From Minisyncoccota bacterium (GTDB taxonomy: Bacteria > Patescibacteriota > Minisyncoccia > Phycocordibacterales > UBA9973): a stretch of 64,000 bases of DNA. The DNA lies in assembly GCA_031972855.1 (NCBI GenBank), contig DALYDY010000001.1, positions 128,048 through 192,047 of the forward strand, in the 5' to 3' direction. Position 1 is the first letter of the stretch; every line of letters begins with the position of its first letter. Of the stretch, positions 17,526-45,533 are shown piece after piece. A program made the position numbers and the translations under genes. The notes under the pieces are model-generated. The model made no database searches, was not told the origin of the DNA, and worked only from the letters and a program-made list of their open reading frames with translations.

Positions 17526-17551
17526 ATTATACTTATTTTTAATAATGTCAA
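17526..17551 (-). promoter_or_regulatory. Sigma70-like promoter for 16965..17501 (second copy of the duplicated promoter module)
   Basis: Minus-strand reading ttgacattattaaaaataagtataat. Confidence 0.5.
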
Positions 17552-17638
17552 CAAAAATAATTTAACGGAATCGCCTCTCCCTTCGGTCGAAACGCACTAA
17601 TTTTACATTCGTTACACTTATTAAAATTAGGCGCCTGC

Positions 17639-17661
17639 GGTTCGATTCCTACCGAGCGGAC
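17639..17661 (+). repeat. Inverted partial copy of the tRNA-Lys T-arm/acceptor 3' end (23 nt), convergent with tRNA-Lys across a palindromic terminator
   Basis: ggttcgattcctaccgagcggac is the exact reverse complement of 17716-17738 (gtccgctcggtaggaatcgaacc). Confidence 0.8.
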
Positions 17662-19972: not shown

Positions 19973-20377
19973 TTAATATATATAAAAATAAATAATTATT
20001 GGAACAATCCAAACAAGCCAATCAATAATTCCTTTGTAGAGATTTTGATTATAAAAAGTTGGATGCAAATAAAATTCCTGGAAGGTAATCCAAAGAGTTA
20101 ATAATCCCAGAATTATAATTGGAAATATTTTAAAGCCAGTTTTGGTAAAAAGGAAGTGAGAAAATAAAATAATAAGTATTGCTCCAGCAAAATGAAATAT
20201 TTCTCTATAAATTAGAAGGCTAGTGCAGTGATACGCGTCGCCGTACTTTAGAGTACATGTATCATGTACATAGTTGTAGGATTTTCTAAAGAAAACAGTT
20301 TTTCCTGAAATATGTGAAGGAAATATAAAAAGCCTGTCTGGAATAGTAATTATAAAATTATATAAATTTTTGATCAT
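19973..20377 (-). CDS. Hypothetical membrane protein
   Basis: Hydrophobic 134-aa ORF. Confidence 0.35.
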   Translation of the reverse strand: MIKNLYNFIITIPDRLFIFPSHISGKTVFFRKSYNYVHDTCTLKYGDAYHCTSLLIYREIFHFAGAILIILFSHFLFTKTGFKIFPIIILGLLTLWITFQEFYLHPTFYNQNLYKGIIDWLVWIVPIIIYFYIY

Positions 20378-20949: not shown

Positions 20950-21156
20950 ATGGATATAGTATATAGTAACTAGTAATTAGAGTATAGACTCATACAAGCT
21001 CGGTACCTTTAGGCGTCAAACAAATACTATGTTCTATTTACTAATTACTAATTACTAAAATACTTACAAGTTCTGGTATTTTCTCATTTTTCATGATATA
21101 GTATCTTTTGTTCGCAATGATCGTGTCTCGATATAAGCAAACACTTAAATAAACAT

Positions 21157-21402
21157 ATGCCAATTACAAAATCAGCAAAACAAGCACTTAAAGTTTCACT
21201 TAAGAGACGTGCAATGAATGACCGCAATAAAAAAGCAGTCAAAGAATCTATAAAAGCCGTTGAAAAAAATCCAAAGGCAACAGATTCAAAACAAACTCTT
21301 TCAAAGGCTTTCAGTGCTCTCGATAAAGCAGTAAAGCGTGGTGTTATGAAAAAGAACACAGCTTCTCGCAAAAAATCACAACTTTCAAAAAAGGTTGGAT
21401 AA
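21157..21402 (+). CDS. rpsT: 30S ribosomal protein S20
   Basis: MPITKSAKQALKVSLKRRAMNDRNKK... basic helical protein, 81 aa. Confidence 0.85.
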   Translation: MPITKSAKQALKVSLKRRAMNDRNKKAVKESIKAVEKNPKATDSKQTLSKAFSALDKAVKRGVMKKNTASRKKSQLSKKVG

Positions 21403-21405
21403 TAA

Positions 21406-21441
21406 AAATCCCTCATAAGTAACTCTTATGGGGGATTTTTC
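21406..21441 (+). terminator. Rho-independent terminator after rpsT
   Basis: aatccctcataag-taac-tcttatgggggatt followed by a T run. Confidence 0.65.
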
Positions 21442-21463
21442 TTTGCTATACTATAAAAATATC

Positions 21464-22975
21464 ATGAAATATTTTCGACGAATTGTTAATTATTTTTTTT
21501 ATTCAATAAGAATAAATCGCATTTATCGCGATCACAAAAATTTTAAAAAACTTCAACAAGAAGAACTTTTTAAGATTATAAATTTAACAAAGGATACAAA
21601 GTGGGGGGCATTATATAAATATAATGAAATAAATTCTATAGAAGATTTTCAAAAAAATGTACCAATTTCAAAATATGAAGAAATAGCACCTTTTATAGAA
21701 GAGATGTTAAAGGGTGAAAAAAATATTTTATGGCCTGGCTTTGTTAAAAATTTTTCAAAATCATCAGGAACAACAAATGCAAAAAGTAAGTATATTCCAC
21801 TACCTGATATTTCTCTTCAAAAAAATCATTTCAACCAAGGTATGGATATGATATCTGTATATCTTTATAACAATAAATATTCTAGAGTACTTTTTGGTAA
21901 GACACTCTCTATTACCGGGAGTCTCTCGAATTCTCCTTTTGGTAATACAGATATTATGGTTGGAGATGTTTCGGCTGTCATAGCTTCAAACGTTCCAAAA
22001 TGGGCTCATATTATAAGAACCCCAAAACTATCTACAGCACTACTTTCTGATTGGAAAGAAAAGGTTGTAAAAATAGTTGACTCTGCTTCAAAAGAAAATG
22101 TTGTAGCATTACTTGGTACACCAACCTGGGTTTCTGTTATTTTGAATAGATTGAATGAAAATACAAATAAGCCTATAAGTGCTTCTTGGAAAAATTTAGA
22201 AGTGTTTTTTCATGGAGCTGTTTCTTTTGCTCCATACAAAACTCTTTTTAAAGAACTTCTTCCTGATAAAAAAATAAATTATGTTGAAGTATATAATGCT
22301 TCAGAAGGCTTCTTTGCTTTTTCTGATGATATGGAAAAACCAGAAGAAATGTTACTTTGTTTGTCTGGAGTATTTTATGAATTTATTCCACTATCTCTTT
22401 TTTCAAAAGGTGAAAGACATGCAGTCTCTTTAAAAGATGTTGAATGTGGTGTTTCTTATGTTGTTGTAATTACAACATATGGAGGACTTTCTAGATATGT
22501 GATTGGAGATACTATATCTTTTGTTAATCTTAATCCTTTTAAAATTATATTTACTGGACGTACAAAATATTTTTTAAATGCTTTTGGTGAAGAGTTAGAA
22601 GCTTTTCACGTTGAAAAAGCGCTGAAAGAATCACTCCAAAAAACAGGAGGTTCAATAAAAAATTTTACAGTTGCCCCTCTTTATATGAAGGATAATAAAA
22701 GCGGCGCTCATGAATGGCTTATTGAATGGTCATTTGAACCTTCTGATATTTTGTTATTTGAAAATAGTGTTGATGAAATTATTAAAAACTTGAACTCAGA
22801 TTATGAGGCAAAAAGAATGAACGATTCTATTTTAGGGAAGCCTGTTTTTAGATATTTACCCGAAAATACTTTTCATAATTGGATGGAAAAGAGGGGAAAG
22901 CTCGGAGGTCAGAACAAAGTCCCGATACTTTCAAATAATCGTGAATACGTTGATGATATTATAAATACACTTTAA
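21464..22975 (+). CDS. GH3 family (auxin-responsive GH3-like acyl-adenylating enzyme) protein
   Basis: SSGTTNAKSKYIPL adenylation motif and overall length typical of bacterial GH3 proteins. Start moved to ATG 21464 because the ORF-track start (21428) lies inside the rpsT terminator hairpin. Confidence 0.6.
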   Translation: MKYFRRIVNYFFYSIRINRIYRDHKNFKKLQQEELFKIINLTKDTKWGALYKYNEINSIEDFQKNVPISKYEEIAPFIEEMLKGEKNILWPGFVKNFSKSSGTTNAKSKYIPLPDISLQKNHFNQGMDMISVYLYNNKYSRVLFGKTLSITGSLSNSPFGNTDIMVGDVSAVIASNVPKWAHIIRTPKLSTALLSDWKEKVVKIVDSASKENVVALLGTPTWVSVILNRLNENTNKPISASWKNLEVFFHGAVSFAPYKTLFKELLPDKKINYVEVYNASEGFFAFSDDMEKPEEMLLCLSGVFYEFIPLSLFSKGERHAVSLKDVECGVSYVVVITTYGGLSRYVIGDTISFVNLNPFKIIFTGRTKYFLNAFGEELEAFHVEKALKESLQKTGGSIKNFTVAPLYMKDNKSGAHEWLIEWSFEPSDILLFENSVDEIIKNLNSDYEAKRMNDSILGKPVFRYLPENTFHNWMEKRGKLGGQNKVPILSNNREYVDDIINTL

Positions 22976-22996
22976 ATATGATAAAGTATTAAATAT

Positions 22997-23266
22997 ATGG
23001 AAATTTATTTAGAAGAATATTTTGGTTTGGAATGTCCTCACTGTCAGAGGATGCAAGAACTTTCAAAAAAAGTTGAAAAAGAAATTGGTATAACCATCAA
23101 TCGTTTTGAGGTTTGGCACAATTATGAAAATATGAAAAAGGTCGAAGATCTCGACCCTAAGAACGAATGTGGTGGTGTACCTTTTTTTATAAACAAAAAA
23201 ACAGGAAAGACTCTTTGTGGGGAAGTTTCTGAAGAGGAAATAAAAAATTGGGCTCTTGGTAAATAA
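22997..23266 (+). CDS. Small glutaredoxin/thioredoxin-like protein
   Basis: CPHCQ redox motif in an 89-aa protein. Confidence 0.5.
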   Translation: MEIYLEEYFGLECPHCQRMQELSKKVEKEIGITINRFEVWHNYENMKKVEDLDPKNECGGVPFFINKKTGKTLCGEVSEEEIKNWALGK

Positions 23267-23284
23267 GGTATATACTTTTTATAT

Positions 23285-23818
23285 ATGAACCAACCTCACA
23301 AAACACATTTTATAGGTACAATACTGATTACTTTCTTTATTATTCTATTGACCGCTATTTTTTTAATAATGAAGAATAGAGTTATTACCGAAGACATTGT
23401 TATTGTTCCTGTTCAAGAAAAACCAATAAGTACTGTAGTAGATAAAACTAAAAGTAATTGCGGTATAACAGTCACTAGTCCAATGATTAGTGATAAATTT
23501 AATGATATTAAAAAAGTTTCAGTGATTGTAGATAATACTAAGAGGGTTGAGCTTGGATGTGGTTGGACTGTATTTGAAGCTCAAGCTGGAACATTTAAAT
23601 TCTTTGATTCAAACAATGAAGAAATTGCAAATGGAATATTGATGGCTGAAAATGGTGCGGATTGGATGACATCTCTTCCTGTGATATATGAAGGGGAAAT
23701 AAAAATAATTGATATTAAAAAATCTATAAAAGAAGGTATAGGTAAACTTGTTATTACAGAAGATGATCCAAGTGGAGAAAAAATTCCTCAAACTGTTGAA
23801 ATCCCTGTGAAGTTTTAG
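23285..23818 (+). CDS. Hypothetical N-terminally membrane-anchored protein
   Basis: TM helix followed by a soluble domain; no motif. Confidence 0.4.
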   Translation: MNQPHKTHFIGTILITFFIILLTAIFLIMKNRVITEDIVIVPVQEKPISTVVDKTKSNCGITVTSPMISDKFNDIKKVSVIVDNTKRVELGCGWTVFEAQAGTFKFFDSNNEEIANGILMAENGADWMTSLPVIYEGEIKIIDIKKSIKEGIGKLVITEDDPSGEKIPQTVEIPVKF

Positions 23819-23838
23819 ATAAATAAAAACCCTATTTG

Positions 23839-23867
23839 TTGACAAAAATGTTTATATAGTATATAAT
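23839..23867 (+). promoter_or_regulatory. Consensus sigma70 promoter (TTGACA-17 nt-TATAAT) upstream of the sigma factor gene
   Basis: ttgaca aaaatgtttatatagta tataat. Confidence 0.6.
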
Positions 23868-23885
23868 ACAAAAAATTAACAAAAA

Positions 23886-24407
23886 ATGAATAAACTTATT
23901 AACGAAACAGGAGAAGTTTTTACTGAGCGTACTTATTGCATAAATGCATATTTACGCGATATTGAAAAAATTCCTGTACTTAATAAGGTAGAGGAATTAG
24001 GATTGGTTCAAAAAGCCAGAGAAGGAGATGAAATGGCAAGAATGGTTTTAATTGTATGTAATTTGAAATTAGCTTTTAGAATTGCAAAAAAATACTATTC
24101 TCCAAAAATATCTTTTCATGATTTATTTTGTGAATCAAACGAAGGATTAATAAAGGGGGTGGATAGGGTAATATCTAAGTGGGATTCTTCTCGTGGCTTT
24201 AGAATAACAGCTCTTGCTATTTATTCTATTTACGGTCAACTGGTTAATAATTTTGATTTTTTAAAAGATCAAATAAAGTTACCTTATTCTGTTGCTAAGA
24301 TAATTCGAGAAAGAAAAAAAGTTTTTAAAGAGTTGCAATCAAAAAATTGTTGTGATCCATCAGAACAAATGGTTCTTGAAAATTATCAGAGAAAGATATT
24401 TTTTTAG
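23886..24407 (+). CDS. RNA polymerase sigma-70 family factor, N-terminal part (regions 1.2-3); interrupted at a T7 run
   Basis: YLRDIEKIPVLNKVEELGLVQKAREGDEMARMVLIVCNLKLAFRIAKKY (regions 1.2/2.1-2.2), HDLFCESNEGLIKGVDR (2.3/2.4), region-3-like tail. Stop codon immediately after TTTTTTT (24399-24405). Confidence 0.7.
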   Translation: MNKLINETGEVFTERTYCINAYLRDIEKIPVLNKVEELGLVQKAREGDEMARMVLIVCNLKLAFRIAKKYYSPKISFHDLFCESNEGLIKGVDRVISKWDSSRGFRITALAIYSIYGQLVNNFDFLKDQIKLPYSVAKIIRERKKVFKELQSKNCCDPSEQMVLENYQRKIFF

Positions 24408-24418
24408 ATAGGAGTCTA

Positions 24419-24865
24419 TTGATGATTCAAGAAGGACTTGAATTTGTTTATGAAAACAACGTTTCATTTTTTAGTACTGAAGAATGTTCAAATTTATTAA
24501 TTCAAAAAGAGTTATTCATTGCTGATGAAGATTTTTCAGCAGATCATTTTGTAGAAAAAGAAGATTTGAAAACAGATACATTAAGATCTCTTAGTTTCTT
24601 AACAGAAAAAGAATTTATAGTTGTTAGTCTGTATTATGGAATTGAATCTGAGAAACTTTTTAAACTTGTTTCTGGTATTAATAAAAATATTGGAATTGAA
24701 ATAAAAAATAAGTTTCAAAATCCAGAACACGAAGGACTAACTCTTGAGGAAATTTCTGGAATCATTCCTTTTACAGTGGAGAGGATTAGGCAGATAAAAG
24801 AAAAAGGAGTAAGAAGACTTAGACAATCTAGGGTTTCTGGTGTTTTGAGAAAATATTTAGGATAG
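24419..24865 (+). CDS. Sigma-70 region 4 (C-terminal part of the same sigma factor, different reading frame)
   Basis: LRSLSFLTEKEFIVVSLYYGI...LTLEEISGIIPFTVERIRQIKEKGVRRLRQ is a region-4 HTH. The frame is reached by adding 1 nt to the T7 run. Confidence 0.65.
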   Translation: MMIQEGLEFVYENNVSFFSTEECSNLLIQKELFIADEDFSADHFVEKEDLKTDTLRSLSFLTEKEFIVVSLYYGIESEKLFKLVSGINKNIGIEIKNKFQNPEHEGLTLEEISGIIPFTVERIRQIKEKGVRRLRQSRVSGVLRKYLG

Positions 24866-25154
24866 TCCCGCAGAAATGCGGGATTTTTTTTGTACTCTAG
24901 TTATGTACGCGAGTAAAGTAGATTGCTCTCGGTAGAAATCTCGCTACACTAAAGGTACTGCGATTTAAACAGGTTGATTAAAATCTAATAAATCGGGAGC
25001 CTACGGTCGCGGGTGAGTTTCAATCTCACTTCGTTCAATAATGAAACTCCTTTCGATTCCTAACAAAAATAAAGTAGTTCACGGAATCGCCTCTCCCTTT
25101 GGTCGAAACGCACAATTTTTATAATCACTCCGTTCTTTAAAAATTGGCGCCTAC

Positions 25155-25201
25155 GGTTCGATTCCTACACGCGAGCAAAGCAGATTGCTCGCTCGAGAGC
25201 A
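25155..25201 (+). repeat. Inverted copy of the tRNA-Arg(GCG) T-arm/acceptor 3' end interrupted by a 25-nt hairpin insertion
   Basis: ggttcgattcctac + acgcgagcaaagcagattgctcgct + cgagagca; compare the tRNA 3' end GGTTCGATTCCTACCGAGAGCA on the opposite strand. Confidence 0.75.
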
Positions 25202-25202
25202 C

Positions 25203-25239
25203 AAAGAGAAAAGCCTCCCTATGGGAGGCTTTTCTCTTT
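25203..25239. terminator. Palindromic hairpin (bidirectional terminator) between the tRNA fragment and tRNA-Arg
   Basis: aaagagaaaagcctccc-tat-gggaggcttttctcttt. Confidence 0.65.
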
Positions 25240-25240
25240 G

Positions 25241-25312
25241 TGCTCTCGGTAGGAATCGAACCTACATCGCAACTTCCGCAAAGTTGCGTCCTATCCATTG
25301 AACGACGAGAGC
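25241..25312 (-). tRNA. tRNA-Arg (anticodon GCG as read; possibly ACG/ICG family), no encoded CCA
   Basis: Minus strand: GCTCTCG acceptor, D arm TCGT-TCAATGGATA-GGACG, anticodon stem CAACT / loop TTGCGGA, T arm GTAGG-TTCGATT-CCTAC, CGAGAGC + A. Confidence 0.75.
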
Positions 25313-25390
25313 AGATTGATAACATATATCAATAGTAAGTAATATACAGTAAAAAACCCTTTTTGAAAAGGGTTTTTAAATATTCTTTAT

Positions 25391-25858
25391 TTATATACCA
25401 AAATAATCAAAAAGTCTTTCAGCAACACTCTCCATTAGAGCCTCTTCTTTTTTTGTATAGGATCCAACAACTTTAACTAAGTCCTCTTCATTTATATTAA
25501 TAATAGGAAAAGATACGATTCTGTTTATACCAACATTACGACTAATAAGAAGAAGTCTCTCATCTTTTCTTGTAACAATATTGTAATTTAGAATATTGTT
25601 CCACAGTATGTACTCTTCATTTATTGAAATTCCTTTTTCATTGATTTCAAAATCAGTAATATTCGGCTCCTTGTGTGCTGTAAATATTATAAGAGATCCA
25701 GAGATTAAAATAAAAATTCCAAAAAGAAAGTTTGAATAGAAAAAAGATGCAATCGATCCAGCGATAACTATAATTCCCATAGCCCAATACCAATCAATGC
25801 TTTTAGGTTTGAATTGGTAGGGAAGAGCGCTCCAAGATATAGACGGTTTTTGTTCCAT
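25391..25858 (-). CDS. Hypothetical membrane protein (2 TM near N-terminus)
   Basis: ORF with hydrophobic helices; no motif. Confidence 0.4.
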   Translation of the reverse strand: MEQKPSISWSALPYQFKPKSIDWYWAMGIIVIAGSIASFFYSNFLFGIFILISGSLIIFTAHKEPNITDFEINEKGISINEEYILWNNILNYNIVTRKDERLLLISRNVGINRIVSFPIININEEDLVKVVGSYTKKEEALMESVAERLFDYFGI

Positions 25859-25860
25859 AT

Positions 25861-26361
25861 ATGTATTGTAGCAATAATTTAATTATTAACAGGTGGAAAA
25901 ATAGTTGCAACATGTTACTATGGTTTTCTATGTGGATTATTTTTGCTTTAGGTGCTTCTGTATTTTGGGGAATGACTTATGTATTGAATGAAGAAATATA
26001 TAAGAAAATTTCTGTTACAACATCTCTTGCTGTTGCTTCTTTGTTTATCTTTATAATAATGACAATTGTTTCGTATTTAAATAATACATTAAAAACAGAC
26101 TTAGCTTCTATTGTTTCTTCAAAAAGGACTTTCCTATATGTTTGTGCTGGAATAGTAACTCTTCTTATTGCTGAGCTTTTTATTGGGTTTTCTATAACAC
26201 ACAAAAGCGCTGTTTTAGCGGGGCTTGTAGAAATTTCATATCCAATATTCATAGCTTTGTTTAGTTATCTTCTTTTTAAAAATCATATAAGTATACCTAC
26301 TATATTAGGGGCTATATTTATTTTTGGAGGAATATTTATAACTTACTATTTTAATAAATAG
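25861..26361 (+). CDS. Hypothetical small multi-TM membrane protein (EamA/SMR-like size)
   Basis: Four to five predicted TM helices in 166 aa. Confidence 0.4.
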   Translation: MYCSNNLIINRWKNSCNMLLWFSMWIIFALGASVFWGMTYVLNEEIYKKISVTTSLAVASLFIFIIMTIVSYLNNTLKTDLASIVSSKRTFLYVCAGIVTLLIAELFIGFSITHKSAVLAGLVEISYPIFIALFSYLLFKNHISIPTILGAIFIFGGIFITYYFNK

Positions 26362-30491: not shown

Positions 30492-30806
30492 ATGCAAATA
30501 AATAATCTTCTAAAAAATCCAATAAAATTTCACAAGAGAAATCCTCTAGCTATTGTTTTTAATGTTTGGTACTTGATATTGTCCATGTTCTTAGTGTTGT
30601 CAGTATTTATTGGAATTTATGCTAAAAATTTATTTGATAGTGTAAATAATTCTGTTTATGAAGGAAATCCAAATCAAATAATAAGAACAGATAAAGATGT
30701 CTCTTATGAAAAAATAAACAATATAGAAAAGTTTTTTAATAATAGAAAAGAAAATTTTCCATCGGTAAATAGTATAATCAATACAGTAGGGGATCCTTCT
30801 TTGTAA
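30492..30806 (+). CDS. Hypothetical bitopic membrane protein (possibly pilus-associated)
   Basis: Single TM helix, 104 aa, same operon. Confidence 0.3.
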   Translation: MQINNLLKNPIKFHKRNPLAIVFNVWYLILSMFLVLSVFIGIYAKNLFDSVNNSVYEGNPNQIIRTDKDVSYEKINNIEKFFNNRKENFPSVNSIINTVGDPSL

Positions 30807-30818
30807 GAAAGTAGTTTG

Positions 30819-30890
30819 TGCCCTCGCGAGGAATCGAACCTCGAATAACGGCTTAGAAGTCCGCAGTTATATCCATTTAACTACAAGGGC
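30819..30890 (-). tRNA. tRNA-Arg (anticodon TCT); no encoded CCA
   Basis: Minus strand: GCCCTTG acceptor, D arm GTTA-AATGGATA-TAAC, anticodon loop CTTCTAA, T arm CGAGG-TTCGATT-CCTCG, CGAGGGC + A. Confidence 0.8.
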
Positions 30891-31302: not shown

Positions 31303-31325
31303 CGAGTCCTCTATCGCCCACAAAA
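31303..31325 (+). repeat. Direct repeat of the last 23 nt of tRNA-Val plus its trailer (cgagtcctctatcgcccacaaaa), 161 bp downstream of the tRNA
   Basis: Identical 23-mer at 31142-31164 and 31303-31325; each copy is followed by its own hairpin terminator. Confidence 0.8.
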
Positions 31326-35616: not shown

Positions 35617-35689
35617 GGGGATTATGGTGTAACGGTTAACACTGAGGTTTGTGGAACCTTCAATCTGGGTTCGATTCCCAGTAATCCCC
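35617..35689 (+). tRNA. tRNA-His (anticodon GTG) with encoded G(-1); no encoded CCA
   Basis: G(-1)-GGGATTA-TG-GTGT-AACGGTTA-ACAC-T-GAGGT-TTGTGGA-ACCTT-CAATC-TGGG-TTCGATT-CCCA-GTAATCCC-C. Confidence 0.85.
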
Positions 35690-37336
35690 CTTTTCAGGAG
35701 TTAATATAACGGAGTCAGGTAATTTGGTCTGGCGTATAGATACGTTCCGACCCCGACCCCTGACAGGACTTAATATAACTGAGTCATCCGTTGTAATAAT
35801 TCCTTTCTCAAAAGCTCGATCCTTTACCGGATCGGGCTTTTGCGTTGTGTTCCAAATAAGCGCGCCTGTTGCCTCAAGTCCTAACACGATTGGAGATTTA
35901 ATTGCCTCGACGATTAGCTTGTCCTCGGCTTTGAATTGGTCCCAGAAAAGCCCAAGGTACAGGCGTTTCAAATCGTCCGGTGCTTTCTGGTAGGTCTTGC
36001 CGATGTTCCGCATAAGGGCTAGTACGTCTTGGATTACATCAATCTTCAGGTTCTTTGTTTGGTCCAGTTTGTGCATTTCGTCCTCGACTCCATCAATCTG
36101 TTCTCGGTAGCGGACCTTTATTTTGGTGAACGCCGCATCGTCGATGATTCCGTTGATCAGCTTTTCTTCGGCGATCTCAAGTTTGCGCTCGAAGTTTATT
36201 TTTGATGTCATGAACTGTTTCTTTTGATTCCCGACATCGGATTTCTTTTCTTCGTAGATGTCCCGCATTTTCTTCACCACTTTATCTATGAAGTCGTCAG
36301 AGAATTGCAGTCCTTTGAATTTCTCTATGATCTGATTTTCTAAATCAAACACCTCGACGTATTTGTCGGTACATTTCTTTTGGTCATTGGACCGATTGCA
36401 GTGGTAGTACGCTTTCTTTTTCAAAGGGTGATATTCGGCCGTGTATCGTTGGCCGCACTTGTTACAAAATACAAATCCGCGCAGTAGAAAGTTATGCTTG
36501 TGCCGTCTGCATGCGTAGCGATTATTTTCCAGCATGACTCTCTGGCATTTATCAAAAAGCTCTTTGGTGATGATTGCCTCATGCTTGCCGATATCATTCA
36601 TCCCTCGCCACTCCATTCCGCCATAATAAAAAGGGCACTTGATTGTGCGAAACATTTTACTCATCGCCACTCGTTTACCCACGGTGCTGACCAGTCCTTT
36701 CTTGTAGAGCAGATCCCGAATCTCAATCAGGGAATAATCGCCGGTGCTATAGAGTTTGAATCCCTCGGCGATGAGTGGTGCGCGGATCGGGTCTGTCGTG
36801 ATGATTCTTTTCTTTTCGTCGTCGGGAGTTCCCGAGTTGAAGTATCCCATCGGTGCTTTCGTCGGCCACCATCCGTCCTTGTATTTTTGCTCCATGCTCT
36901 TGAGCGTCTTTCGGGAAGTGATCTGCGATTGCAGTTGGTTCACGCCGGCAATTATCAAGTCCATGAAGTTGCCCTCGGGCGTGTCCTCGAGTCCCGGTTG
37001 CGATACCGATATCAGTTCGACGTTGTGCTTTCGCAGGAGTGCCTTGATCGTAAGGTGGTCCCCGGCATTACGGGCGAGTCGGTCCGTATCTTGGACGAAG
37101 ATCGCGCCGATGCTCTTATCCTCTTGGATACGGATCAACATGTCTTGAAGTCCGGGGCGATTCATGTTGGTCGCGCTCTTGCCCGGGTCCTTGTAGACAC
37201 CGTCGTCGGCAAGCTTGAAGGTTTTCATATCTTCAATGCCGCGCTCGCAGAGGCGCAGTTGGGTTTTTAATGAGTGCCGTTCGTCACCGGCTTGTTCATC
37301 GGTGGAAACTCGGCAGTAAATGAGAGCTTTATTCAT
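35660..37336 (-). CDS. Large serine recombinase (resolvase/invertase catalytic domain + recombinase domain + zinc ribbon)
   Basis: N-terminal YCRVSTDEQ catalytic-Ser motif, resolvase-domain conserved Arg/Asp residues, central recombinase domain, C-terminal Cys cluster (CNKCGQ...HCNRS). Start taken at MNKALIYCRVS. The open frame continues antisense through the tRNA-His 3' end before the first stop. Confidence 0.8.
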   Translation of the reverse strand: MNKALIYCRVSTDEQAGDERHSLKTQLRLCERGIEDMKTFKLADDGVYKDPGKSATNMNRPGLQDMLIRIQEDKSIGAIFVQDTDRLARNAGDHLTIKALLRKHNVELISVSQPGLEDTPEGNFMDLIIAGVNQLQSQITSRKTLKSMEQKYKDGWWPTKAPMGYFNSGTPDDEKKRIITTDPIRAPLIAEGFKLYSTGDYSLIEIRDLLYKKGLVSTVGKRVAMSKMFRTIKCPFYYGGMEWRGMNDIGKHEAIITKELFDKCQRVMLENNRYACRRHKHNFLLRGFVFCNKCGQRYTAEYHPLKKKAYYHCNRSNDQKKCTDKYVEVFDLENQIIEKFKGLQFSDDFIDKVVKKMRDIYEEKKSDVGNQKKQFMTSKINFERKLEIAEEKLINGIIDDAAFTKIKVRYREQIDGVEDEMHKLDQTKNLKIDVIQDVLALMRNIGKTYQKAPDDLKRLYLGLFWDQFKAEDKLIVEAIKSPIVLGLEATGALIWNTTQKPDPVKDRAFEKGIITTDDSVILSPVRGRGRNVSIRQTKLPDSVILTPEKGDYWESNPD

Positions 37337-37509
37337 GGTAATTGTAATAGTTAGCTGATAAGGGCAATGCGACGACATTATGCTAGGAACACGGGATATA
37401 GCAATGGTGGGTTTTGTTTTTGTGTCGTATATGTGGTCATTTTTATCGTTTTTCACTACTGGCTTAACTGACGTTATTTTGAAATGGTCCTTATTTCATG
37501 GGCTATTAA

Positions 37510-37869
37510 CTACAGAAATCCGTCATGTCTGTTCCGAGGGTCGATCCAGTCGCCCGGGTACTCTCTGATGATTTCATTGAGTTTCTGTCGCAACTGCGCC
37601 ATTTCAACAGAAAACTGTTCAAGCCGTTCTTTCCATCGGTCAAACTGCGGTCGCTTTTCACGGAGTACTGTCTGTTCTTTCGTAAGGCGTTCGAATGCTT
37701 TCCACATCAGCTTTGTTGCATATGCTCGGTTGAGGTTGTATCCCTTTTCTTTGAGGTAATAGCAAAGCGCACGAGCGCTCATGCTCGTATCTTTGGATAC
37801 GATGTCATAGATGATATCGATATGGTGGTTTGTTTGTTCTGATGAGTATTTCATGGATTGTGAAAACAA
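37510..37869 (-). CDS. Hypothetical small HTH/coiled-coil protein (possible transposase-OrfA-like or recombination accessory factor)
   Basis: 119 aa, GC-rich codon usage like the island; basic helical N-terminus. Weak similarity only. Confidence 0.3.
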   Translation of the reverse strand: MFSQSMKYSSEQTNHHIDIIYDIVSKDTSMSARALCYYLKEKGYNLNRAYATKLMWKAFERLTKEQTVLREKRPQFDRWKERLEQFSVEMAQLRQKLNEIIREYPGDWIDPRNRHDGFL

Positions 37870-38030
37870 AATTCATTCTGGCTTATTCGCTGTTTGGTGG
37901 CTTGTGATGGATTGTCATTCGGTGTTTTCTTAGGGTTTTCAGTATTTTTTGGCACGCGCGTTAGGTTTCTTTTTTTATTTCCTTTATTTTCTTTCTTACC
38001 CCCTCGAAAGTGTTCGGTATGCTGAACACC

Positions 38031-38504
38031 TTATAGCGGTTTAACCCTGAATTTATCAGTAAGATTCTTGATTCCGTCTTGTAAATTTGAACGGTCTTGC
38101 TGTTCATTCTGTCGAATGTTCTGTTCTGTAGGTTGAATCCCTTGTTCGATACACCGAAATCCCTGTTCAGCTTGCCGAACCGAGGCTTGATAAATCCAGA
38201 AGTAATTCACACCTGTTTTATTTTTCGGGAGCTTAATAAGGAACCCTTTCTCGGCGAGTGACTTTCTGGTTTCACTGATCTTGCCACGGGACCAGTTTGG
38301 CAAGCAGTGATCTTTGATGTCTTGAAGTGATAAGTCCTCGATGATACCAAACCGCTCCTCGTCGCGTTTATCCCATCGTGCATGGGTCACATACATGTCG
38401 AAAAGCCGATACTCCTGATCGGTCATCACTTTTTTGTATTCGATAGCCATATATCTATATAGCTTTAGGTAGCCTACGTGTTTTTTCTTCATGTTCATTT
38501 TCAT
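38031..38504 (-). CDS. Hypothetical protein (157 aa)
   Basis: ORF with island-like composition. Confidence 0.35.
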   Translation of the reverse strand: MKMNMKKKHVGYLKLYRYMAIEYKKVMTDQEYRLFDMYVTHARWDKRDEERFGIIEDLSLQDIKDHCLPNWSRGKISETRKSLAEKGFLIKLPKNKTGVNYFWIYQASVRQAEQGFRCIEQGIQPTEQNIRQNEQQDRSNLQDGIKNLTDKFRVKPL

Positions 38505-38618
38505 GCTCGATTTGCATCAAGAGGATTTGGGCGAGACGTTCGACAAAGAAATCCAAGTCTTTTGGATTCAAGGGGACCTGTACAGGGACCGGTTTGTTGT
38601 CGAGCGTCTGGTCCATAA

Positions 38619-38876
38619 TTAATTTACCTCGTAGAGGCGGGTCTTTAACGCTTTGATCTGGTCAAAGTAAGCGCGCGGTTCGACCGACAGCTGACGCTTT
38701 TGGAATTCTGAAACAATGTCTTCAAGTTCCGGAGTCCGGGCGAATATGAATTGCGCTCGCCTCGGTACACTCTTGTCGACATCTTCGAGTGGCACGAACA
38801 GCGAAATTGCCGCCGCGCACGCGAGGTCTGAAGTTTGGTACATAGATTTTTGATTAATAATAATTTTCATAGTCAT
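38619..38876 (-). CDS. Hypothetical protein (85 aa)
   Basis: ORF only. Confidence 0.3.
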   Translation of the reverse strand: MTMKIIINQKSMYQTSDLACAAAISLFVPLEDVDKSVPRRAQFIFARTPELEDIVSEFQKRQLSVEPRAYFDQIKALKTRLYEVN

Positions 38877-39354
38877 TTTTCAAAGAGCTAGCTGAAAACA
38901 AAAAAGAGGACTTGCAACGCAAATCCAATATTGATGGATATGCATCACAAGTCCTCCGGGGTATTCGGCCAGACTTCGAACATTAGTTGTGAAAAGACTA
39001 CTCTCAAATCGTAGCGCGGACCGCTAATGAAGCGCAACTCCTGACAGTGTGGACAAAGTAGTATGCCTAGTGAACCACTTAAAGATTTTATCTTTACGTC
39101 ATAACAACTTTTTGGAATCGAATTGGCCGTATGAGGAGAGCAATAGAACACTTGTTTTTAAAAAGGCAAACAGTGGAGAGATTCCCTGTAGGCTTAGTCT
39201 GGTATCTATAACACCGTGGGGATAACCGATAAAGGTTGTAGATATGCGACAAGTAAAATCTAAAATAACCCTTATTTAAAAGGGCTATTTTTGGAATAGG
39301 GGTCTCTTGTAAATAACTATTTGCAAGTAAAGGCACTTTCTTGTATACTTATGT

Positions 39355-40821
39355 TTGCAAGTGAAAAAGCCTATGAAAACAGAGCAAAAACAAAAAATCT
39401 TTGAATTTATACAGGACCAGATCGCAAATGCTGACTTTAGAATCAAGGCATACGTATTTGATGAGTCCGGGAAGAAGCGTCTCGGGCGTAACTGCTTTGT
39501 GAAGCTTGATATGCATGTACAGAACTTCCTACAAGGAAAATCTCCTATTCGATGGATAACCATGTATGGCTTACGTGGTGCCGGCAAAACTACCTTACTT
39601 GCTCAGTTGTATGAGCAGACGAAAATTGAGAGCAAAAGAAAATTATTTTTATCAGTGGATCAGGCGGTTGGAATTTTTGGAGTTAGTCTCAAAGATATTC
39701 TTGATGTCTACGAAGAATCGCTTGGTACATCCTTCGAACGTCTCACGGAACCAGTCTTCCTTTTTCTTGATGAGGTTCAATACGATGAGAAGTGGGCTCT
39801 ATTACTCAAAACGATTTATGATCGCAGTAGCAAGGTTTTTATTATTGCGACAGGTTCGTCTGCGCTTTCGCTACAAGCGAGTCCTGATGTTGCACGACGC
39901 GCAATTTTTGAAAAACTTTTCCCGATGAGCTTCACGGAATATATAAAGATTAAAAATCAAAAGACAGAAATTCGGGGACTTGCCAAGGAACTACGCGAGG
40001 CGATTTTTAATTCCAAAGATGCTAAAGAGGTTCACACACGTCTTAAGGGTTTGGAAGTAAAAGCTCGGCAGTATTGGTTAGATATAGAACGGAAAGAGAT
40101 TGATTCATATATGCAATATGGGACACTGCCTTTTATGATCGCTCTGAATAATGAGGCAATGGTCTACGATCAAATCAAGAAGACCCTTGAGCGTGTTATC
40201 AGTATTGATATTCCACATATAAATCAATTTTCAGCAGAGACTATATCCAAGATACCAATGGTGCTTTATGCACTTGCAGAAACGGACCAGTTGAGCTTGA
40301 GCAGTCTCGCTGATAAAGGCGAGCTTGATATTAGCCGTCCAGTGCTTACAGCCGTTCTCGAAACTCTGGAAAGAACAGAAACGATTTGGCGTATTTACCC
40401 TCATGGGTCGCATGTAACACAAACAACTCGTCAGCCATCAAAATATCTTTTTACGAGCCCAGCGTTTCGGTCCATGTATTTTAATTTTATAGGAAACACA
40501 AGGACCCACGATACCTATAAAGGGAAAATACTTGAAGATACTGTCGGTCTTTATCTTAATCGCATATTCTCGGGCAAGCCCGACACTTCCGTAACGTACG
40601 ACAGTGCCGCCGGCGGAGCTGATTTCATTATTCGTCAAAGTAAAGACATGATTGTATTGGAAGTCGGGTACGGCGATAAATCGTTTAGGCAAGTTGTAAC
40701 TACAATGGCAAAGGTCGGAGTAAATGCTCGATACGGCATAGTTGTGTCGCAAAGTCCGCTTGCCTTAGATGAAGAGAAAAATGCAGTAAGTATCCCACTC
40801 TCTTATTTTTTGTTGATGTAA
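39355..40821 (+). CDS. AAA+ superfamily ATPase (COG1373/DUF4143-type)
   Basis: Walker A GLRGAGKTTLLAQL, Walker B FLDEVQY, C-terminal DUF4143-like region; 488 aa. Confidence 0.65.
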   Translation: MQVKKPMKTEQKQKIFEFIQDQIANADFRIKAYVFDESGKKRLGRNCFVKLDMHVQNFLQGKSPIRWITMYGLRGAGKTTLLAQLYEQTKIESKRKLFLSVDQAVGIFGVSLKDILDVYEESLGTSFERLTEPVFLFLDEVQYDEKWALLLKTIYDRSSKVFIIATGSSALSLQASPDVARRAIFEKLFPMSFTEYIKIKNQKTEIRGLAKELREAIFNSKDAKEVHTRLKGLEVKARQYWLDIERKEIDSYMQYGTLPFMIALNNEAMVYDQIKKTLERVISIDIPHINQFSAETISKIPMVLYALAETDQLSLSSLADKGELDISRPVLTAVLETLERTETIWRIYPHGSHVTQTTRQPSKYLFTSPAFRSMYFNFIGNTRTHDTYKGKILEDTVGLYLNRIFSGKPDTSVTYDSAAGGADFIIRQSKDMIVLEVGYGDKSFRQVVTTMAKVGVNARYGIVVSQSPLALDEEKNAVSIPLSYFLLM

Positions 40822-40845
40822 AGATCCAGAATAATTAAAATTACT

Positions 40846-41034
40846 ATGAAAATCGACAACCAAGAAAACAAAAAAGAACTCTACATCAAATGCGTAAAAT
40901 GCGGTGATGAGATTTTTTGGAATACGCACAAACAACTAACTTACTGCACATGTAAGGCTATTTATGTTGATGGCTGCGAGGGTTATATCCGGGTCGGCGG
41001 AAATAAAGAGGATCACGTTGAGATTCAAAAATAG
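40846..41034 (+). CDS. Small zinc-ribbon protein
   Basis: CVKCGDE...CTCKAIYVDGCEG Cys pattern; 62 aa. Confidence 0.4.
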   Translation: MKIDNQENKKELYIKCVKCGDEIFWNTHKQLTYCTCKAIYVDGCEGYIRVGGNKEDHVEIQK

Positions 41035-41039
41035 ATCAC

Positions 41040-41372
41040 ATGAATAATCAAAAGATAGAAATTATAAGACAACCAGTATTTAAACCTTTTGAAAGTAGAA
41101 TGGTTCTTTGCGCTGATCCTGTTATCAAAATAAGCGATAAAGAAAAAATAGCCCGCTTTGCTATTTCTATGGTTGATACATCTGTTTTACAGTTGGGAGA
41201 TAATTTTGAAAAATTAAACAAAATGATTAGAGATACTCTCCAGGACGGTGTTCAAGAAAATTTTGAAATAGATGGTGTTTACTACTTTGAATACACAGGT
41301 AGTCATTTCCAACAATTAGATGGGAAACCAGATTGGGCTAATGATTTCTATAGACAAGGTATAAATATTTAA
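41040..41372 (+). CDS. Hypothetical protein (110 aa)
   Basis: ORF only; 6-bp intergenic gaps on both sides (operonic). Confidence 0.35.
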   Translation: MNNQKIEIIRQPVFKPFESRMVLCADPVIKISDKEKIARFAISMVDTSVLQLGDNFEKLNKMIRDTLQDGVQENFEIDGVYYFEYTGSHFQQLDGKPDWANDFYRQGINI

Positions 41373-41377
41373 AATTT

Positions 41378-42847
41378 ATGGGATGGATAATTTTCATTGG
41401 AATAGTTATTTACTTCATTTACAGCTCTTCAAAAAGCACAGGTACTTCAGCGTCTCCATCTAAGCCTCACTACTCGAAGCCTTATAGCAAGCCCGCAGTT
41501 GTTGTAAATAAAAAACTAAATGAGGATCAGTTACTTGTTGAAAAAATAACGCTTAGCGAAGAGCAGCAGACCCTGTTCGATAAAATCGAACATAGCACCG
41601 ATCACTTCTTCATTACAGGTAAGGCGGGGACCGGTAAGTCAGTGTTGTTGCAGTATTTGAAATTCAAATCAAAGAAACGCTTGGTTGTTGGTGCTTTTAC
41701 CGGAGTCGCTGCACTGAACGTAGGAGGCCAGACCTTGAATTCGTTATTCGAATTGCCGACGGGTTTCATAGATTTAAGTCGCTTAACAGTAAGCGGTCGA
41801 GTTTCCACTTTGATGAGGCACGTTGATACTGTCGTCATCGATGAGATATCTATGGTCCGGGCTGATATGATGGGTGCCATTGATGTAATTCTTCGACAGG
41901 CGCGCAAGAATGACGTTCCATTCGGCGGAGTTCAAATGGTCATGTTTGGGGACCTTTACCAATTACCTCCCGTTGTGGCCGACGAAGCACTGCATCAGTA
42001 TTTTGCCCATAATCATGGTGGTCCTTATTTTTTTAATGCTGATGTCTGGCAGAGAGCAACACTTCACACTTTCGAACTGAGTCATATTTTCCGTCAGCAG
42101 GATGATGAGGAATTCAAAGCTATTCTTAATTCAGTACGAAAAAATCAAATAGAAGATACTGTCCTTTCATCCTTGAATCAACGGCACGTTGACCAGGTAC
42201 CCACTGACGGAGTCGTTACGCTTGCAACTCGCAACGCTGTGGTTGATCGAATAAACAATGATCGCCTGGCTCGACTTGGCGGTGAGTTGTATGAATATCG
42301 CGCAGATGTTTCTGGGAATTTAGAACGATCTGCGTTTCCAGCTGAAGAATTCTTACGACTCAAAAAGGGTGCTCAGGTGATGCTCCTCAAAAATGATCCA
42401 GAGAAGCGATGGGTAAATGGTACGGTCGGTGTGGTTGAGTCGTTGTCATCGTCTGAAATAAAGGTCCGCATTAATGGCGAAATTATTTATTCGATCCCGC
42501 GAGCAACCTGGACCAAAATTCGCTATTTCTACGATACTGAAACAAGAAAAATCGAAGAGGAAGTTTTGAGCTCATTTACTCAATTCCCACTTCGCTTGGC
42601 ATGGGCGTTCACGATTCACAAATCCCAAGGTAAAACATACAATGCTGTCGTCGTAAATATGGAGGGAGGTGCTTTTGCTCACGGACAAACGTATGTTGCG
42701 CTCAGTCGTTGCACTTCTCTTAACGGACTATATCTGACCCAGCCTATCGAAAGAGATGATATAAAAGTTGATCCGGTCGTAGTCAGCTTTATGGAACAAA
42801 TTACATTAGAGACTATTAATCCTGATGTACAAACACAAATTATATGA
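41378..42847 (+). CDS. PIF1/RecD-family (SF1B) DNA helicase
   Basis: Walker A GKAGTGKSVLL, VVIDEISMV (Walker B), GDLYQLPPV (Pif1 motif III), C-terminal SF1 helicase motifs (AFTIHKSQG...YVALSR); N-terminal TM segment. Confidence 0.8.
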   Translation: MGWIIFIGIVIYFIYSSSKSTGTSASPSKPHYSKPYSKPAVVVNKKLNEDQLLVEKITLSEEQQTLFDKIEHSTDHFFITGKAGTGKSVLLQYLKFKSKKRLVVGAFTGVAALNVGGQTLNSLFELPTGFIDLSRLTVSGRVSTLMRHVDTVVIDEISMVRADMMGAIDVILRQARKNDVPFGGVQMVMFGDLYQLPPVVADEALHQYFAHNHGGPYFFNADVWQRATLHTFELSHIFRQQDDEEFKAILNSVRKNQIEDTVLSSLNQRHVDQVPTDGVVTLATRNAVVDRINNDRLARLGGELYEYRADVSGNLERSAFPAEEFLRLKKGAQVMLLKNDPEKRWVNGTVGVVESLSSSEIKVRINGEIIYSIPRATWTKIRYFYDTETRKIEEEVLSSFTQFPLRLAWAFTIHKSQGKTYNAVVVNMEGGAFAHGQTYVALSRCTSLNGLYLTQPIERDDIKVDPVVVSFMEQITLETINPDVQTQII

Positions 42848-44226
42848 AAAATAACATCTACCCAATTATCGGCATGAGTCCAGGCAATAGCTACTTCAAG
42901 GATGAAGAGATTAAATATCTTCTCAAGACCGCAGTAGACCGCTATGGAAAGGTTGCTGTGATGATTGCTGACATCCCTGCAATCTCGACATATGTCGCAC
43001 TCGGCTATCCTGAAAATCGTGCGCGGCGCGATAAGGCCCTGCCACAAGGAAATCTTTTGAAAAATAGAACTGAGCGGGCCGTCGTCCAACTCGGATACAC
43101 AAAGGATCAGGTAAGGATTATTGATTGGGAAAATGAAATAGAACCGAATGAAAATTACAAAAAGTCGTATAAGTATATTCGGCATCTTTATGAATCAAAC
43201 AAGCAATTTGAACATGATGCCGATGAGACAACTAAGGGTGTCGTCACTGGTTCAAAGAAAGAAATTAAAGATATAGATGTTGCGGTAAAAACTGCGGTCC
43301 ACTACTTGCTTTCAGAATTTGCTTTTCTTGATTTTGCACCCGGATTTTTAGGAGCTGAAAAAATCACCTATATTTATCACAAAAATTGGCCTGTGTATGA
43401 AAACTATATTGCAGGAAAGTATGACGGGAAATCAAAAGACCATGTCGATTTCCTACTCATGGAAAATCCATGGGAGACGTATCGTTCAGTGTGGGGTGAT
43501 GAGGATAATGAGAATGGAAGTTATACATCCGCCCTTGATCGTGTAGAAAAGACAAAGACGCTCCGTGTAGCTTTCACAAACTATCCACCCGCGTTATTTT
43601 ATAATCACGAAACCGATACTTTCTCGGGTATTTTCTATGAGATTATTACTGCAATAGCAGAAAAGCATGGTTGGCAGATTAAGTGGAGCGAAGAGACAGG
43701 ATATGGTGTTGTAATTGATGGATTGGACCATAATCGCTTTGATCTGTTTGGGAGCACTGTTTGGCCGACACCTGAGCGAAAAGAGAAAGCGTCTTTTTCA
43801 AAATCTATGTATACAAGCGAGGCATATCCATGGACGTTTCCAGGATTTGAGTATGAAAAGCTTAAAGATAGTCCTGATCTAAGGGTTGTGGTGAAAGAAA
43901 ACGATATCTCTCATTCGATTGCAATGGCTGATTTTCCAAAAGCACGACTGGTATTTGTACCGCAGCTTTCGGACCCTCAAGAATTGCTGCAATTTGTAGC
44001 TGACGGAAAAGGGGACGTGACGTTTGCAGAAATTAACCTTGTGGAAATTTTTATAAAAGCGAAACAAAAGAAATTGGTACAGGCAACAAGTAGTCCTATT
44101 CGCGTATATGAAAATACTTTTGTTTTCAAAAAAGACGATCCCTCATTAAAAAATCTTATTGATGAAGAAATCGTAGCCATGGTTGCTAGTGGTAAAATGG
44201 AAAAGTTGATAGAAAAATATCTTTAA
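42844..44226 (+). CDS. Two-domain protein: N-terminal cyclodipeptide synthase (CDPS, tRNA-dependent)-like domain fused to C-terminal family-3 solute-binding-protein (SBP_bac_3)-like domain
   Basis: N-terminal ~235 aa align motif-by-motif with YvmC/AlbC-type CDPSs: IIGMSPGNSYFKDEEI vs VGISPFNSRFSEDYI, VAVMIADIPAISTYVALG vs VSVLLAGHEAANLLEALG, AVHYLLSEFAFLDFAPGFLGAEKITYIYH vs [29 protein letters not shown] (catalytic Tyr/Glu positions conserved). C-terminal ~225 aa match amino-acid-binding SBP family 3: LRVAFTNYPPALFY...GIFYEIITAIAEKHGWQIKW...RFDLFGSTVWPTPERKEKASFSKSMY. ATGA start/stop overlap with the helicase gene. Confidence 0.65.
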   Translation: MKNNIYPIIGMSPGNSYFKDEEIKYLLKTAVDRYGKVAVMIADIPAISTYVALGYPENRARRDKALPQGNLLKNRTERAVVQLGYTKDQVRIIDWENEIEPNENYKKSYKYIRHLYESNKQFEHDADETTKGVVTGSKKEIKDIDVAVKTAVHYLLSEFAFLDFAPGFLGAEKITYIYHKNWPVYENYIAGKYDGKSKDHVDFLLMENPWETYRSVWGDEDNENGSYTSALDRVEKTKTLRVAFTNYPPALFYNHETDTFSGIFYEIITAIAEKHGWQIKWSEETGYGVVIDGLDHNRFDLFGSTVWPTPERKEKASFSKSMYTSEAYPWTFPGFEYEKLKDSPDLRVVVKENDISHSIAMADFPKARLVFVPQLSDPQELLQFVADGKGDVTFAEINLVEIFIKAKQKKLVQATSSPIRVYENTFVFKKDDPSLKNLIDEEIVAMVASGKMEKLIEKYL

Positions 44227-44240
44227 CACATAATTAATTC

Positions 44241-44768
44241 ATGACACTACTTATTTTCCAAATTCTCTCAAGCGTTTTTGGTTTTGCAAACAAACTCTTG
44301 CTGTATCTTGGGAAACGAACGGGTTGGATTTTGGGATTTCTGGCGGGAGTATTTTTTGTCGTTTATTTTTTCCTAATCGGATTTACTGTATATGCATTCG
44401 TACAAATAGGATTTAGTCTTTTGATGCTGTATGGATATTTTTCTCATACAGGAATCTCTAAAAATGCAAGAATTTTTGCCACCGTAATTTTATCTTTAAT
44501 CGCTATTATTATTTGCTTTATAACGTTTAACGGCAAACTGACTTTACTTGAAGCAACTTCAGCTTTATTGGCCTCATGGGGCACATACTATCTTGCATCA
44601 AAGAATAATATAAAAGGGTGGGGCATGTACCTTATTGCTCATTTTATCCTTATTTATCTAACCATCATAAAACAACAATATATTTTTGCCTTGTTTCAAG
44701 GGTTGTCAGCAGTCGTTTCGATCTTAGGAATTATTAGATCAGGAGATACTAAAACGAAGGGTTTCTAA
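44241..44768 (+). CDS. Small multi-TM membrane protein (possible PnuC-like transporter; uncertain)
   Basis: 175 aa, 5-6 TM helices, directly downstream of the CDPS-SBP fusion gene. Confidence 0.3.
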   Translation: MTLLIFQILSSVFGFANKLLLYLGKRTGWILGFLAGVFFVVYFFLIGFTVYAFVQIGFSLLMLYGYFSHTGISKNARIFATVILSLIAIIICFITFNGKLTLLEATSALLASWGTYYLASKNNIKGWGMYLIAHFILIYLTIIKQQYIFALFQGLSAVVSILGIIRSGDTKTKGF

Positions 44769-44785
44769 AAGTTTAACTATTAAAA

Positions 44786-44821
44786 AAACCTCATGTTGAA
44801 TTTATACAACATGAGGTTTAA
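44786..44821. terminator. Bidirectional hairpin terminator
   Basis: aaacctcatgttg-aatttataca-acatgaggttt. Confidence 0.7.
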
Positions 44822-44850
44822 CTTTTGATGAAGAGGATTAAACTGTCATC

Positions 44851-45423: not shown

Positions 45424-45533
45424 TTGTTATTTGGTTTTGATTGTTTGAAAAGAACGAATTTCACTGTCAACCCACAACGTTTTGTTATGAACTGAATAAT
45501 GAAGGGAGCTACTTTATTCACTCCCTTTGAGGT

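Follow-up and report, generated by a model that had tools for sequence, protein, structure and literature searches.

Comparison with intact alleles places the frameshift in an accessory sigma-70-family gene of a Minisyncoccota bacterium upstream of a T7 run

A stretch of 64,000 nucleotides (nt) from the genome of a Minisyncoccota bacterium (assembly GCA_031972855.1, contig DALYDY010000001.1, positions 128,048 to 192,047; hereafter, the window) carries a predicted sigma-70-family gene that is divided into two open reading frames (ORFs), ORF1 and ORF2, by a premature stop codon. A run of seven T residues (T7) precedes and overlaps this stop codon. Here we show by comparison with three intact alleles that the frameshift maps to a short A run located upstream of T7. 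Related strains lack the whole gene, and we regard the locus as probably a young pseudogene of a dispensable accessory regulator.

RESULTS

Position of the frameshift

A protein search with the conceptual fusion of ORF1 and ORF2 as the query found P0001, a single ORF of 326 amino acids (aa) that is 96% identical to the fusion across 100% of the query. P0001 is encoded on two contigs, L001 (Logan SRR25018348) and L002 (ENA ERZ3602260), and a third intact allele, P0122, is present on L015 (GCA_020049755.1). These three contigs share approximately 96% nt identity with the window in the flanks and 98.5% in the sigma gene. In DNA alignments, the intact alleles all read …CTTGAAAAATTATCAGAGAAAGATATTTTTTTAGATAGG…, and the window lacks one A in CTTGAAAA(A)TTATC, so that a run of five A residues (A5) is reduced to four (A4). 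This deletion lies 17 to 20 nt upstream of T7. In contrast, the length of T7 was identical in all eight contigs examined, and in the intact alleles the run is read in frame as ATT TTT TTA (Ile-Phe-Leu). As the intact alleles keep their frame despite an identical T7 and are distinguished from the window by A5 versus A4, the frameshift was placed at A4, and the DNA alignment with three intact alleles rules out T7 as the lesion. The true lesion is thus a 1-nt deletion at codon 166, and T7 is a bystander that merely supplies the first out-of-frame stop, eight codons on.

The first-pass annotation of this DNA had described the gene as split at the T7 homopolymer and had proposed comparing the T-run length among orthologues. 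The lesion sits upstream of this run, however, and the same T7 is found in intact, in-frame orthologues. It had further stated that one extra T would fuse the two ORFs. This is correct in that adding one T at T7 opens a frame of 326 codons, but neither such an addition nor a slip on the U run brings back the ancestral frame, and a repair at this position leaves eight wrong residues (NYQRKIFF instead of KLSEKDIF).

A 1-nt deletion at any position in the sigma gene is followed by a stop after a median of 6 codons, and the distance found here is typical. T7 is not an exceptional feature either: the window contains 82 A/T runs of at least 7 nt (1.3 per kb), three of which are located inside the sigma gene.

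Distribution of the A4 allele

The exact 173-aa product of ORF1 is also on record from four further contigs, namely, L003 (GCA_031972175.1), L004 (SRR6410602), L005 (SRR4000971) and L006 (SRR4000976). All four are 100% identical to the window over 1.6 to 11.7 kb and carry A4 together with T7. The assembly containing L003 is distinct from the source of the window, since the L003 contig ends at window position 25638. A4 is therefore carried by three separate sequencing runs and by a second NCBI assembly. Furthermore, the A4/A5 state is linked to 14 substitutions in the sigma gene, which argues for one historical mutation rather than a flickering tract. Judged from these assembled contigs, A4 is evidently a genuine allele that has become fixed in a single clonal lineage.

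Architecture of the split gene

The positions of ORF1, ORF2 and their signals are given in Table 1. ORF1 ends with the eight out-of-frame residues NYQRKIFF, followed by TAG, and ORF2 encodes the end of sigma-3 helix 3, the 3.2 linker and a sigma-4 domain with an insertion of approximately 25 aa. One promoter and one terminator serve both ORFs. The promoter-like site is unchanged in the intact alleles on L001 and L015, and a consensus scan detected no promoter-like site 5' of ORF2. The T run of the terminator is T8 in the window and T7 in the sister lineage.

ORF1 matched the Pfam model Sigma70_r1_2 (24.2 bits; cut-off, 22) and, weakly, Sigma70_r2, and ORF2 matched Sigma70_r4 (30.2 bits; cut-off, 24.1). 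We also built a local sigma hidden Markov model (HMM) from 80 homologues and searched with it, using hmmsearch, the six-frame translation of the window. ORF1 and ORF2 were the sole sigma-like ORFs, with model positions 4-161 falling on ORF1 and 164-284 on ORF2. A weak sigma-like match at 30707-30880 on the minus strand (E = 9e-4) overlaps a tRNA-Arg gene and was discarded as spurious. The earlier description of this locus is confirmed in these respects: the two ORFs, the T7 run and the TAG that follows it were all verified, the upstream promoter matches the consensus throughout, and no other sigma-70-family gene was found in the window by the HMM scan.

A small subfamily of predicted sigma factors

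The fused 326-aa protein can be aligned with models of RpoS and RpoD right through the junction. It scored 47.8 bits with TIGR02937, the sigma70-ECF superfamily model (cut-off, 42.9; residues 53-314), and 158 bits with the local sigma HMM. None of the equivalog models for RpoS, RpoD, RpoH, FliA and MzaA came near its own cut-off on the fused protein, Pfam Sigma70_r2 reached 17.8 bits on the fused or intact product (below the cut-off of 24), and the Pfam region 3 model gave no match. In alignments to the SigA and RpoS structures, residues 19-168 match sigma-2 and sigma-3 (E = 1e-19), and the sigma-4 domain also aligns to sigma structures in the PDB. An AlphaFold model of the product (pLDDT 75) comprises sigma-1.2, sigma-2, a three-helix sigma-3 (residues 134-154, 160-169 and 175-190), a disordered 3.2 linker (191-218) and a sigma-4 domain with inserted helices. 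The PDB alignments to SigA and RpoS agree with this placement of the helices. According to the model, the deletion at codon 166 falls inside sigma-3 helix 2, and the initiating Met of ORF2, codon 180, falls inside helix 3.

The helix-turn-helix of region 4 carries the motif LTLEEI…RIRQIKEKGVRRLR, which is conserved in the family alignment. In region 2.3/2.4, the near-invariant Y-A-V-W-W-I-R-Q is replaced by L-A-I-Y-S-I-Y-G, with loss of the WW pair and of the Q residue, which suggests an unusual promoter specificity.

Identity to named or ordinary sigma factors is 25-32% and reaches at most 32%. An exhaustive HMMER search recovered P0292, P0293 and P0294 (326-334 aa; 33-37% identity; E = 1e-45 to 1e-53), together with a few more proteins at 26-27% identity; P0333, P0346 and P0389 are further distant homologues. 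No homologues between 96% and 37% identity were found. The distant homologues are all single ORFs of similar length that align across the junction, and they share the insertion of approximately 25 residues between sigma-4.1 and sigma-4.2. One of them is encoded in another metagenome-assembled genome, in a different gene context. Because these homologues are single ORFs across the junction, the intact form is evidently the ancestral one.

The product is apparently an alternative sigma-70-family factor belonging to a small, undescribed subfamily of about 326 aa. It resembles the short RpoS/SigA-like forms (groups 2 and 3) in having region 1.2 and in its predicted fold, which combines sigma-2 and three sigma-3 helices with a disordered 3.2 linker and a helix-turn-helix in sigma-4. 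However, unlike in these proteins, region 2 scores below the Pfam cut-off, region 3 has no match and the region 2.3/2.4 motif is altered. In addition, the sigma-4 insertion is otherwise found only in the handful of homologues of about 326 aa, and the gene is accessory and strain variable. It also differs from the ECF sigma factors, since region 1.2 and a sigma-3 domain are present, as in groups 1 to 3. PHROGs returned a generic sigma match only (phrog_351), and PADLOC returned MzaA at 44 bits. A phage or defence origin was considered and rejected, as the matches are only generic sigma matches, the neighbouring genes have no matches and there are no relatives in IMG/VR.

A strain-variable cassette

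Variants of the upstream GH3 gene led us to three related contigs without the sigma gene, L008 (JGI 3300071638), L009 (SRR22752015) and L013 (SRR24788948), the flanks of which are 88-91% nt identical. They retain the neighbouring 177-aa and 155-aa genes, with an unrelated 86-aa ORF between them for which no match was found in Pfam, PHROG or PADLOC. Homology to these contigs ends directly 3' of the stop codon of the 177-aa gene (approximately 23820-23827) and resumes at approximately 24907, and contigs L010 and L011 break at exactly this boundary. No close relatives of the sigma gene were found in GTDB representative genomes, JGI metagenomes or IMG/VR. By this comparison, the gene is evidently dispensable and accessory. 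It is not the housekeeping sigma gene, because it is absent from the slot in L008, L009 and L013 and its product scores far below the RpoD and SigA equivalog cut-offs, and the essential sigma factor of the cell must be encoded elsewhere. An earlier title for this locus had implied an essential sigma factor, which does not agree with the absence of the gene in related strains.

When the window is compared with the sister lineage, the sigma gene shows a synonymous divergence of 0.045, as opposed to 0.12-0.21 for the S20, GH3, RuvA and 177-aa genes, which suggests that sharing of the cassette postdates that of the backbone. The corresponding value for orf89 is 0.02, and identity amounts to 99.8% over 25197-26207 (21072-26207 was compared with L001 and L002). 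Of the 14 substitutions that the sigma gene carries, eight are concentrated in codons 282-302, in the region 4.2 helix-turn-helix. This mosaic divergence from the sister lineage suggests recombination tracts.

The right flank of the cassette is made up of modular repeats with fragments resembling tRNA 3' ends, and the repeat units beside the cassette are ordered differently in L002 and L008. Similar sequences recur next to tRNA genes in the window. Positions 52-74 of tRNA-Lys are copied exactly at 17639-17661, and a 14-nt T-arm/T-loop stretch common to tRNA-Arg (positions 51-64) and tRNA-Lys (positions 52-65) is found again at 25155-25168. Positions 56-74 of tRNA-Val recur at 31303-31321, and a repeat of approximately 100 nt has copies at 17550-17652 and 25066-25168 that share 80% identity. 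The units beside the cassette are possibly scars of integration events. A minus-strand ORF of 134 aa (19973-20377) separates the Fpg gene from the RuvA gene in the window lineage, L010 and L011. It is absent in L008, L009 and L014, where the Fpg gene (310 aa) abuts the RuvA gene. This ORF is another small strain-variable insertion.

Other features of the window

The PolA protein encoded in the window finds its nearest named relatives (58-60% identity) in Candidatus Pacebacteria, Paceibacterota and Patescibacteria, which places the host, with a GC content of about 30%, in the candidate phyla radiation (CPR), close in appearance to Paceibacteria. Shine-Dalgarno (SD)-like motifs occur in only 5 of the 58 larger genes, and in many genes a TATAAT-like box precedes the ATG by 6-10 nt (e.g., at 28293, 33368, 49447 and 60915), which suggests that leaderless mRNAs, or mRNAs with very short leaders, are widespread. 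The number of A/T runs falls gently up to a length of 7 nt (71 runs of exactly 7), beyond which there are 10 runs of 8 nt and one of 9 nt. This collapse above 7 fits selection acting against runs of at least 8 nt, which are prone to slippage.

The region 35618-50000 has a GC content of 0.40-0.46, compared to about 0.30, and starts directly after a tRNA-His gene (35618-35690). In addition to a large serine recombinase and a cyclodipeptide synthase fused to a solute-binding domain, it encodes an AAA_14 ATPase, a PIF1-like helicase, an NMN transporter and a reverse transcriptase. This block looks like a mobile island integrated in the genome of this CPR bacterium. A diversity-generating retroelement (DGR) lies at 46190-48697. 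In the core of its repeats (about 46700-46815), all mismatches are an A in the template and a non-A in the variable copy. Mismatches restricted to template adenines are a hallmark of adenine-directed mutagenesis.

Table 1. Features of the split sigma gene, its surroundings and the GC-richer block (window coordinates unless a contig is named)
Feature	Position	Strand	Remarks
Strain-variable cassette	~23820-24906	+	Promoter, sigma gene and terminator
Promoter-like site	23839-23867	+	TTGACA-17-TATAAT; 12/12 consensus matches
ORF1	23886-24407	+	173 aa, frame 0; sigma regions 1.2 and 2, sigma-3 helix 1 and most of helix 2
A4 tract	24379-24382	+	1-nt deletion site, codon 166; A5 in intact alleles
T7 run	24399-24405	+	Exactly seven T; precedes and overlaps TAG
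Premature TAG	24405-24407	+	Ends ORF1
AGGAG	24410-24414	+	7 nt 5' of ATG 24422; Arg-Ser codons in intact alleles
ORF2	24422-24865 (ATG) or from 24419 (TTG)	+	147 aa (ATG) or 148 aa (TTG), frame 2
Intrinsic terminator	24864-24892	+	9-bp GC-rich stem (24864-24885), then T8
Modular repeats	24907-25312		Right flank; tRNA 3'-end-like fragments
tRNA-Arg(GCG)	25240-25312	-	
86-aa ORF in sigma slot	L008 6176-6436; L009 4549-4809; L013 3826-4086		Membrane-like
Large serine recombinase	35660-37456	-	GC-richer block
Cyclodipeptide synthase	42844-44226		Fused to solute-binding domain; GC-richer block
DGR variable repeat	~46700-46815		C-terminal end of ORF 46190-46828
DGR template repeat	~47141-47256		
DGR reverse transcriptase	47681-48697		

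DISCUSSION

The ancestral cassette evidently consisted of a consensus promoter, a 326-codon alternative sigma gene and a terminator. One A was then lost from the A5 run at codon 166, inside sigma-3 helix 2. Translation would continue out of frame for eight codons and stop at the TAG beyond the pre-existing, in-frame T7, giving a 173-aa product without the sigma-3.2 linker and sigma-4, which would be unable on its own to position RNA polymerase on the -35 element. We thus consider that the gene has probably been inactivated by a recent frameshift and that the locus is a presumed young pseudogene of a dispensable accessory regulator. Among the options listed in the first-pass annotation, a real pseudogene is the best supported one. 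Frameshifted pseudogenes of small AT-rich genomes arise in the same way, by a single-base deletion in an A run with a stop a few codons on. Here, too, the promoter is preserved together with the two half-ORFs, as would be expected if the event was recent. The present case differs from them in that the gene forms a free-standing accessory cassette in a CPR bacterium instead of being part of a general decay. Moreover, the A run is only 4 to 5 nt long, so that transcriptional slippage at the lesion is not expected.

Several observations weigh against a pseudogene. Both ORFs are still open up to the natural C terminus. The window differs from the intact alleles by 5 nonsynonymous versus approximately 9 synonymous changes (P = 0.0004 versus neutrality), and downstream of the frameshift by 4 versus approximately 7 (P = 0.002 versus neutrality). 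Finally, ATG 24422, which is AGG in the intact alleles, lies 14 nt after the stop, making a restart possible. As there is no sign of decay, either the frameshift is very recent or ORF2 is still constrained, and the low ratio of nonsynonymous to synonymous change (dN/dS) fits a very recent frameshift equally well.

Alternatively, ribosomes ending at TAG 24405-24407 may reinitiate at TTG 24419 or ATG 24422 and thereby produce a fragment with the linker and sigma-4 that would form a functional pair with the ORF1 product. Indeed, the window reads TTG ATG where all three intact alleles read TTA AGG, placing a start codon shortly after the stop and 7 nt after an AGGAG. If derived, such an ATG would be expected by chance among the observed substitutions with a probability of approximately 0.025, and nonsynonymous changes are not in excess in the ORF2 part. 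A precedent exists in SigO-RsoA, where sigma-2 and sigma-4 reside on separate polypeptides according to the passages in PMC7826278 and PMC10141391 that cite MacLellan et al. (2009), and where the parts are encoded, as here, by adjacent co-transcribed ORFs. However, Met may be the ancestral residue, since V, Y or M occupies this position in the nearest members of the family. The three alleles yield an unrooted tree only, whose window branch carries all but one of the 13 variable codons, and no outgroup exists that would polarize codon 180, which makes the argument for a compensatory ATG weak. The role of AGGAG as a ribosome-binding site is likewise undermined by the scarcity of SD-like motifs in the window (5 of 58 genes), and the motif is probably irrelevant. 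Furthermore, SigO-RsoA is a conserved, evolved arrangement, whereas here the split results from a 1-nt deletion confined to one clonal lineage, without internal variation. Based on the structural model, the cut interrupts sigma-3 within helices 2-3 instead of separating two domains, and a pair of fragments would lack 14 residues (166-179). Every homologue is made as one chain from one ORF. A functional pair is thus unlikely in our view. That the frameshift and the ATG at codon 180 together turned a single-chain sigma factor into a working two-polypeptide one by termination-reinitiation is quite improbable.

Rescue by slippage at T7 appears very unlikely. RNA polymerase could add a U, or the P-site tRNA-Phe could slip by -1 on UUU UUU at the UAG, and a stop codon in the A site does favor P-site slippage. 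The outcome would be a small amount of a 326-aa sigma factor with NYQRKIFF in place of KLSEKDIF and the junction peptide …ENYQRKIFFLDR…. One extra T at 24399-24405 is sufficient to fuse the ORFs, and A/T runs are a substrate of transcriptional insertions, the frequency of which rises exponentially with run length (PMC5574713). However, T7 pre-exists in frame in the intact alleles and hence did not evolve for rescue, and the genome tolerates 71 runs of 7 nt but only approximately 11 of 8 nt or more. Seven T residues are also short for efficient slippage; the cases of slippage rescue known to us use runs of 9 or more. The earlier proposal was a -1 slip on U UUU UUU, but the actual phase of the run is TTT TTT T and not the tandem-slip phase T TTT TTT. 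There is also no downstream structure, the fold of 24399-24480 (-12.3 kcal/mol; z = -0.11 versus shuffles) being not significant, and no SD-like motif was found upstream of T7. Traverse and Ochman found no transcript error that restored a reading frame. The sigma gene resembles dnaX, prfB and insertion sequence elements, and the poly-A rescue of Buchnera and Blochmannia, in that its U-rich slippery run directly precedes a stop and a shift at this run would join the frames. In contrast to these systems, the need for a frameshift is not conserved in the orthologues of the sigma gene, a stimulatory hairpin and an upstream SD are lacking, and the run is only 7 nt long and in frame in the intact alleles. 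Thus, with a split that is not conserved and no stimulatory structure, programmed recoding finds no support.

The first-pass annotation had also considered a homopolymer sequencing or assembly error, in which case the true genome would have A5 and an intact gene. The difference is indeed a single base in a homopolymer, the classic type of error, and the NCBI third-party annotation (TPA) assembly may stem from one of the same runs. However, three SRA runs, each assembled on its own, and two NCBI assemblies all show A4, and the agreement of separately assembled read sets makes a chance error unlikely. No further coding indel relative to the sister lineage occurs in the same 3.9-kb block, the two other indels being intergenic. 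Homopolymer runs of 4 to 5 nt are not error prone on short-read platforms. An artefact is therefore highly improbable.

A phase-variable (contingency) sigma gene switched on and off by homopolymer length, another earlier suggestion, is extremely unlikely, for although A4 (off) and A5 (on) both exist in closely related lineages, the state cosegregates with the 14 linked substitutions and approximately 4% flank divergence, which points to one event, T7 is invariant in eight of eight contigs, and A4/A5 is too short a tract, far below the lengths that give high switching rates.

As it stands, a strain-specific frameshift in a dispensable regulator matters little, and the phenomenon is ordinary. 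Of minor value are the finding that the sigma gene is a swappable cassette beside a tRNA gene and the description of a small subfamily of CPR sigma factors of about 326 aa with an altered region 2.3/2.4 and a sigma-4 insertion. The locus also calls for caution in AT-rich genomes, where a homopolymer beside a premature stop is often not the site of the frameshift and where locating the frameshift needs comparison with an intact allele. If the two fragments were to work together, the locus would capture in nature the emergence of a split sigma factor, which is rarely seen, and, in a CPR bacterium whose translation is leaderless and SD free, it would be a very young example of how a bipartite sigma factor of the SigO-RsoA type originates.

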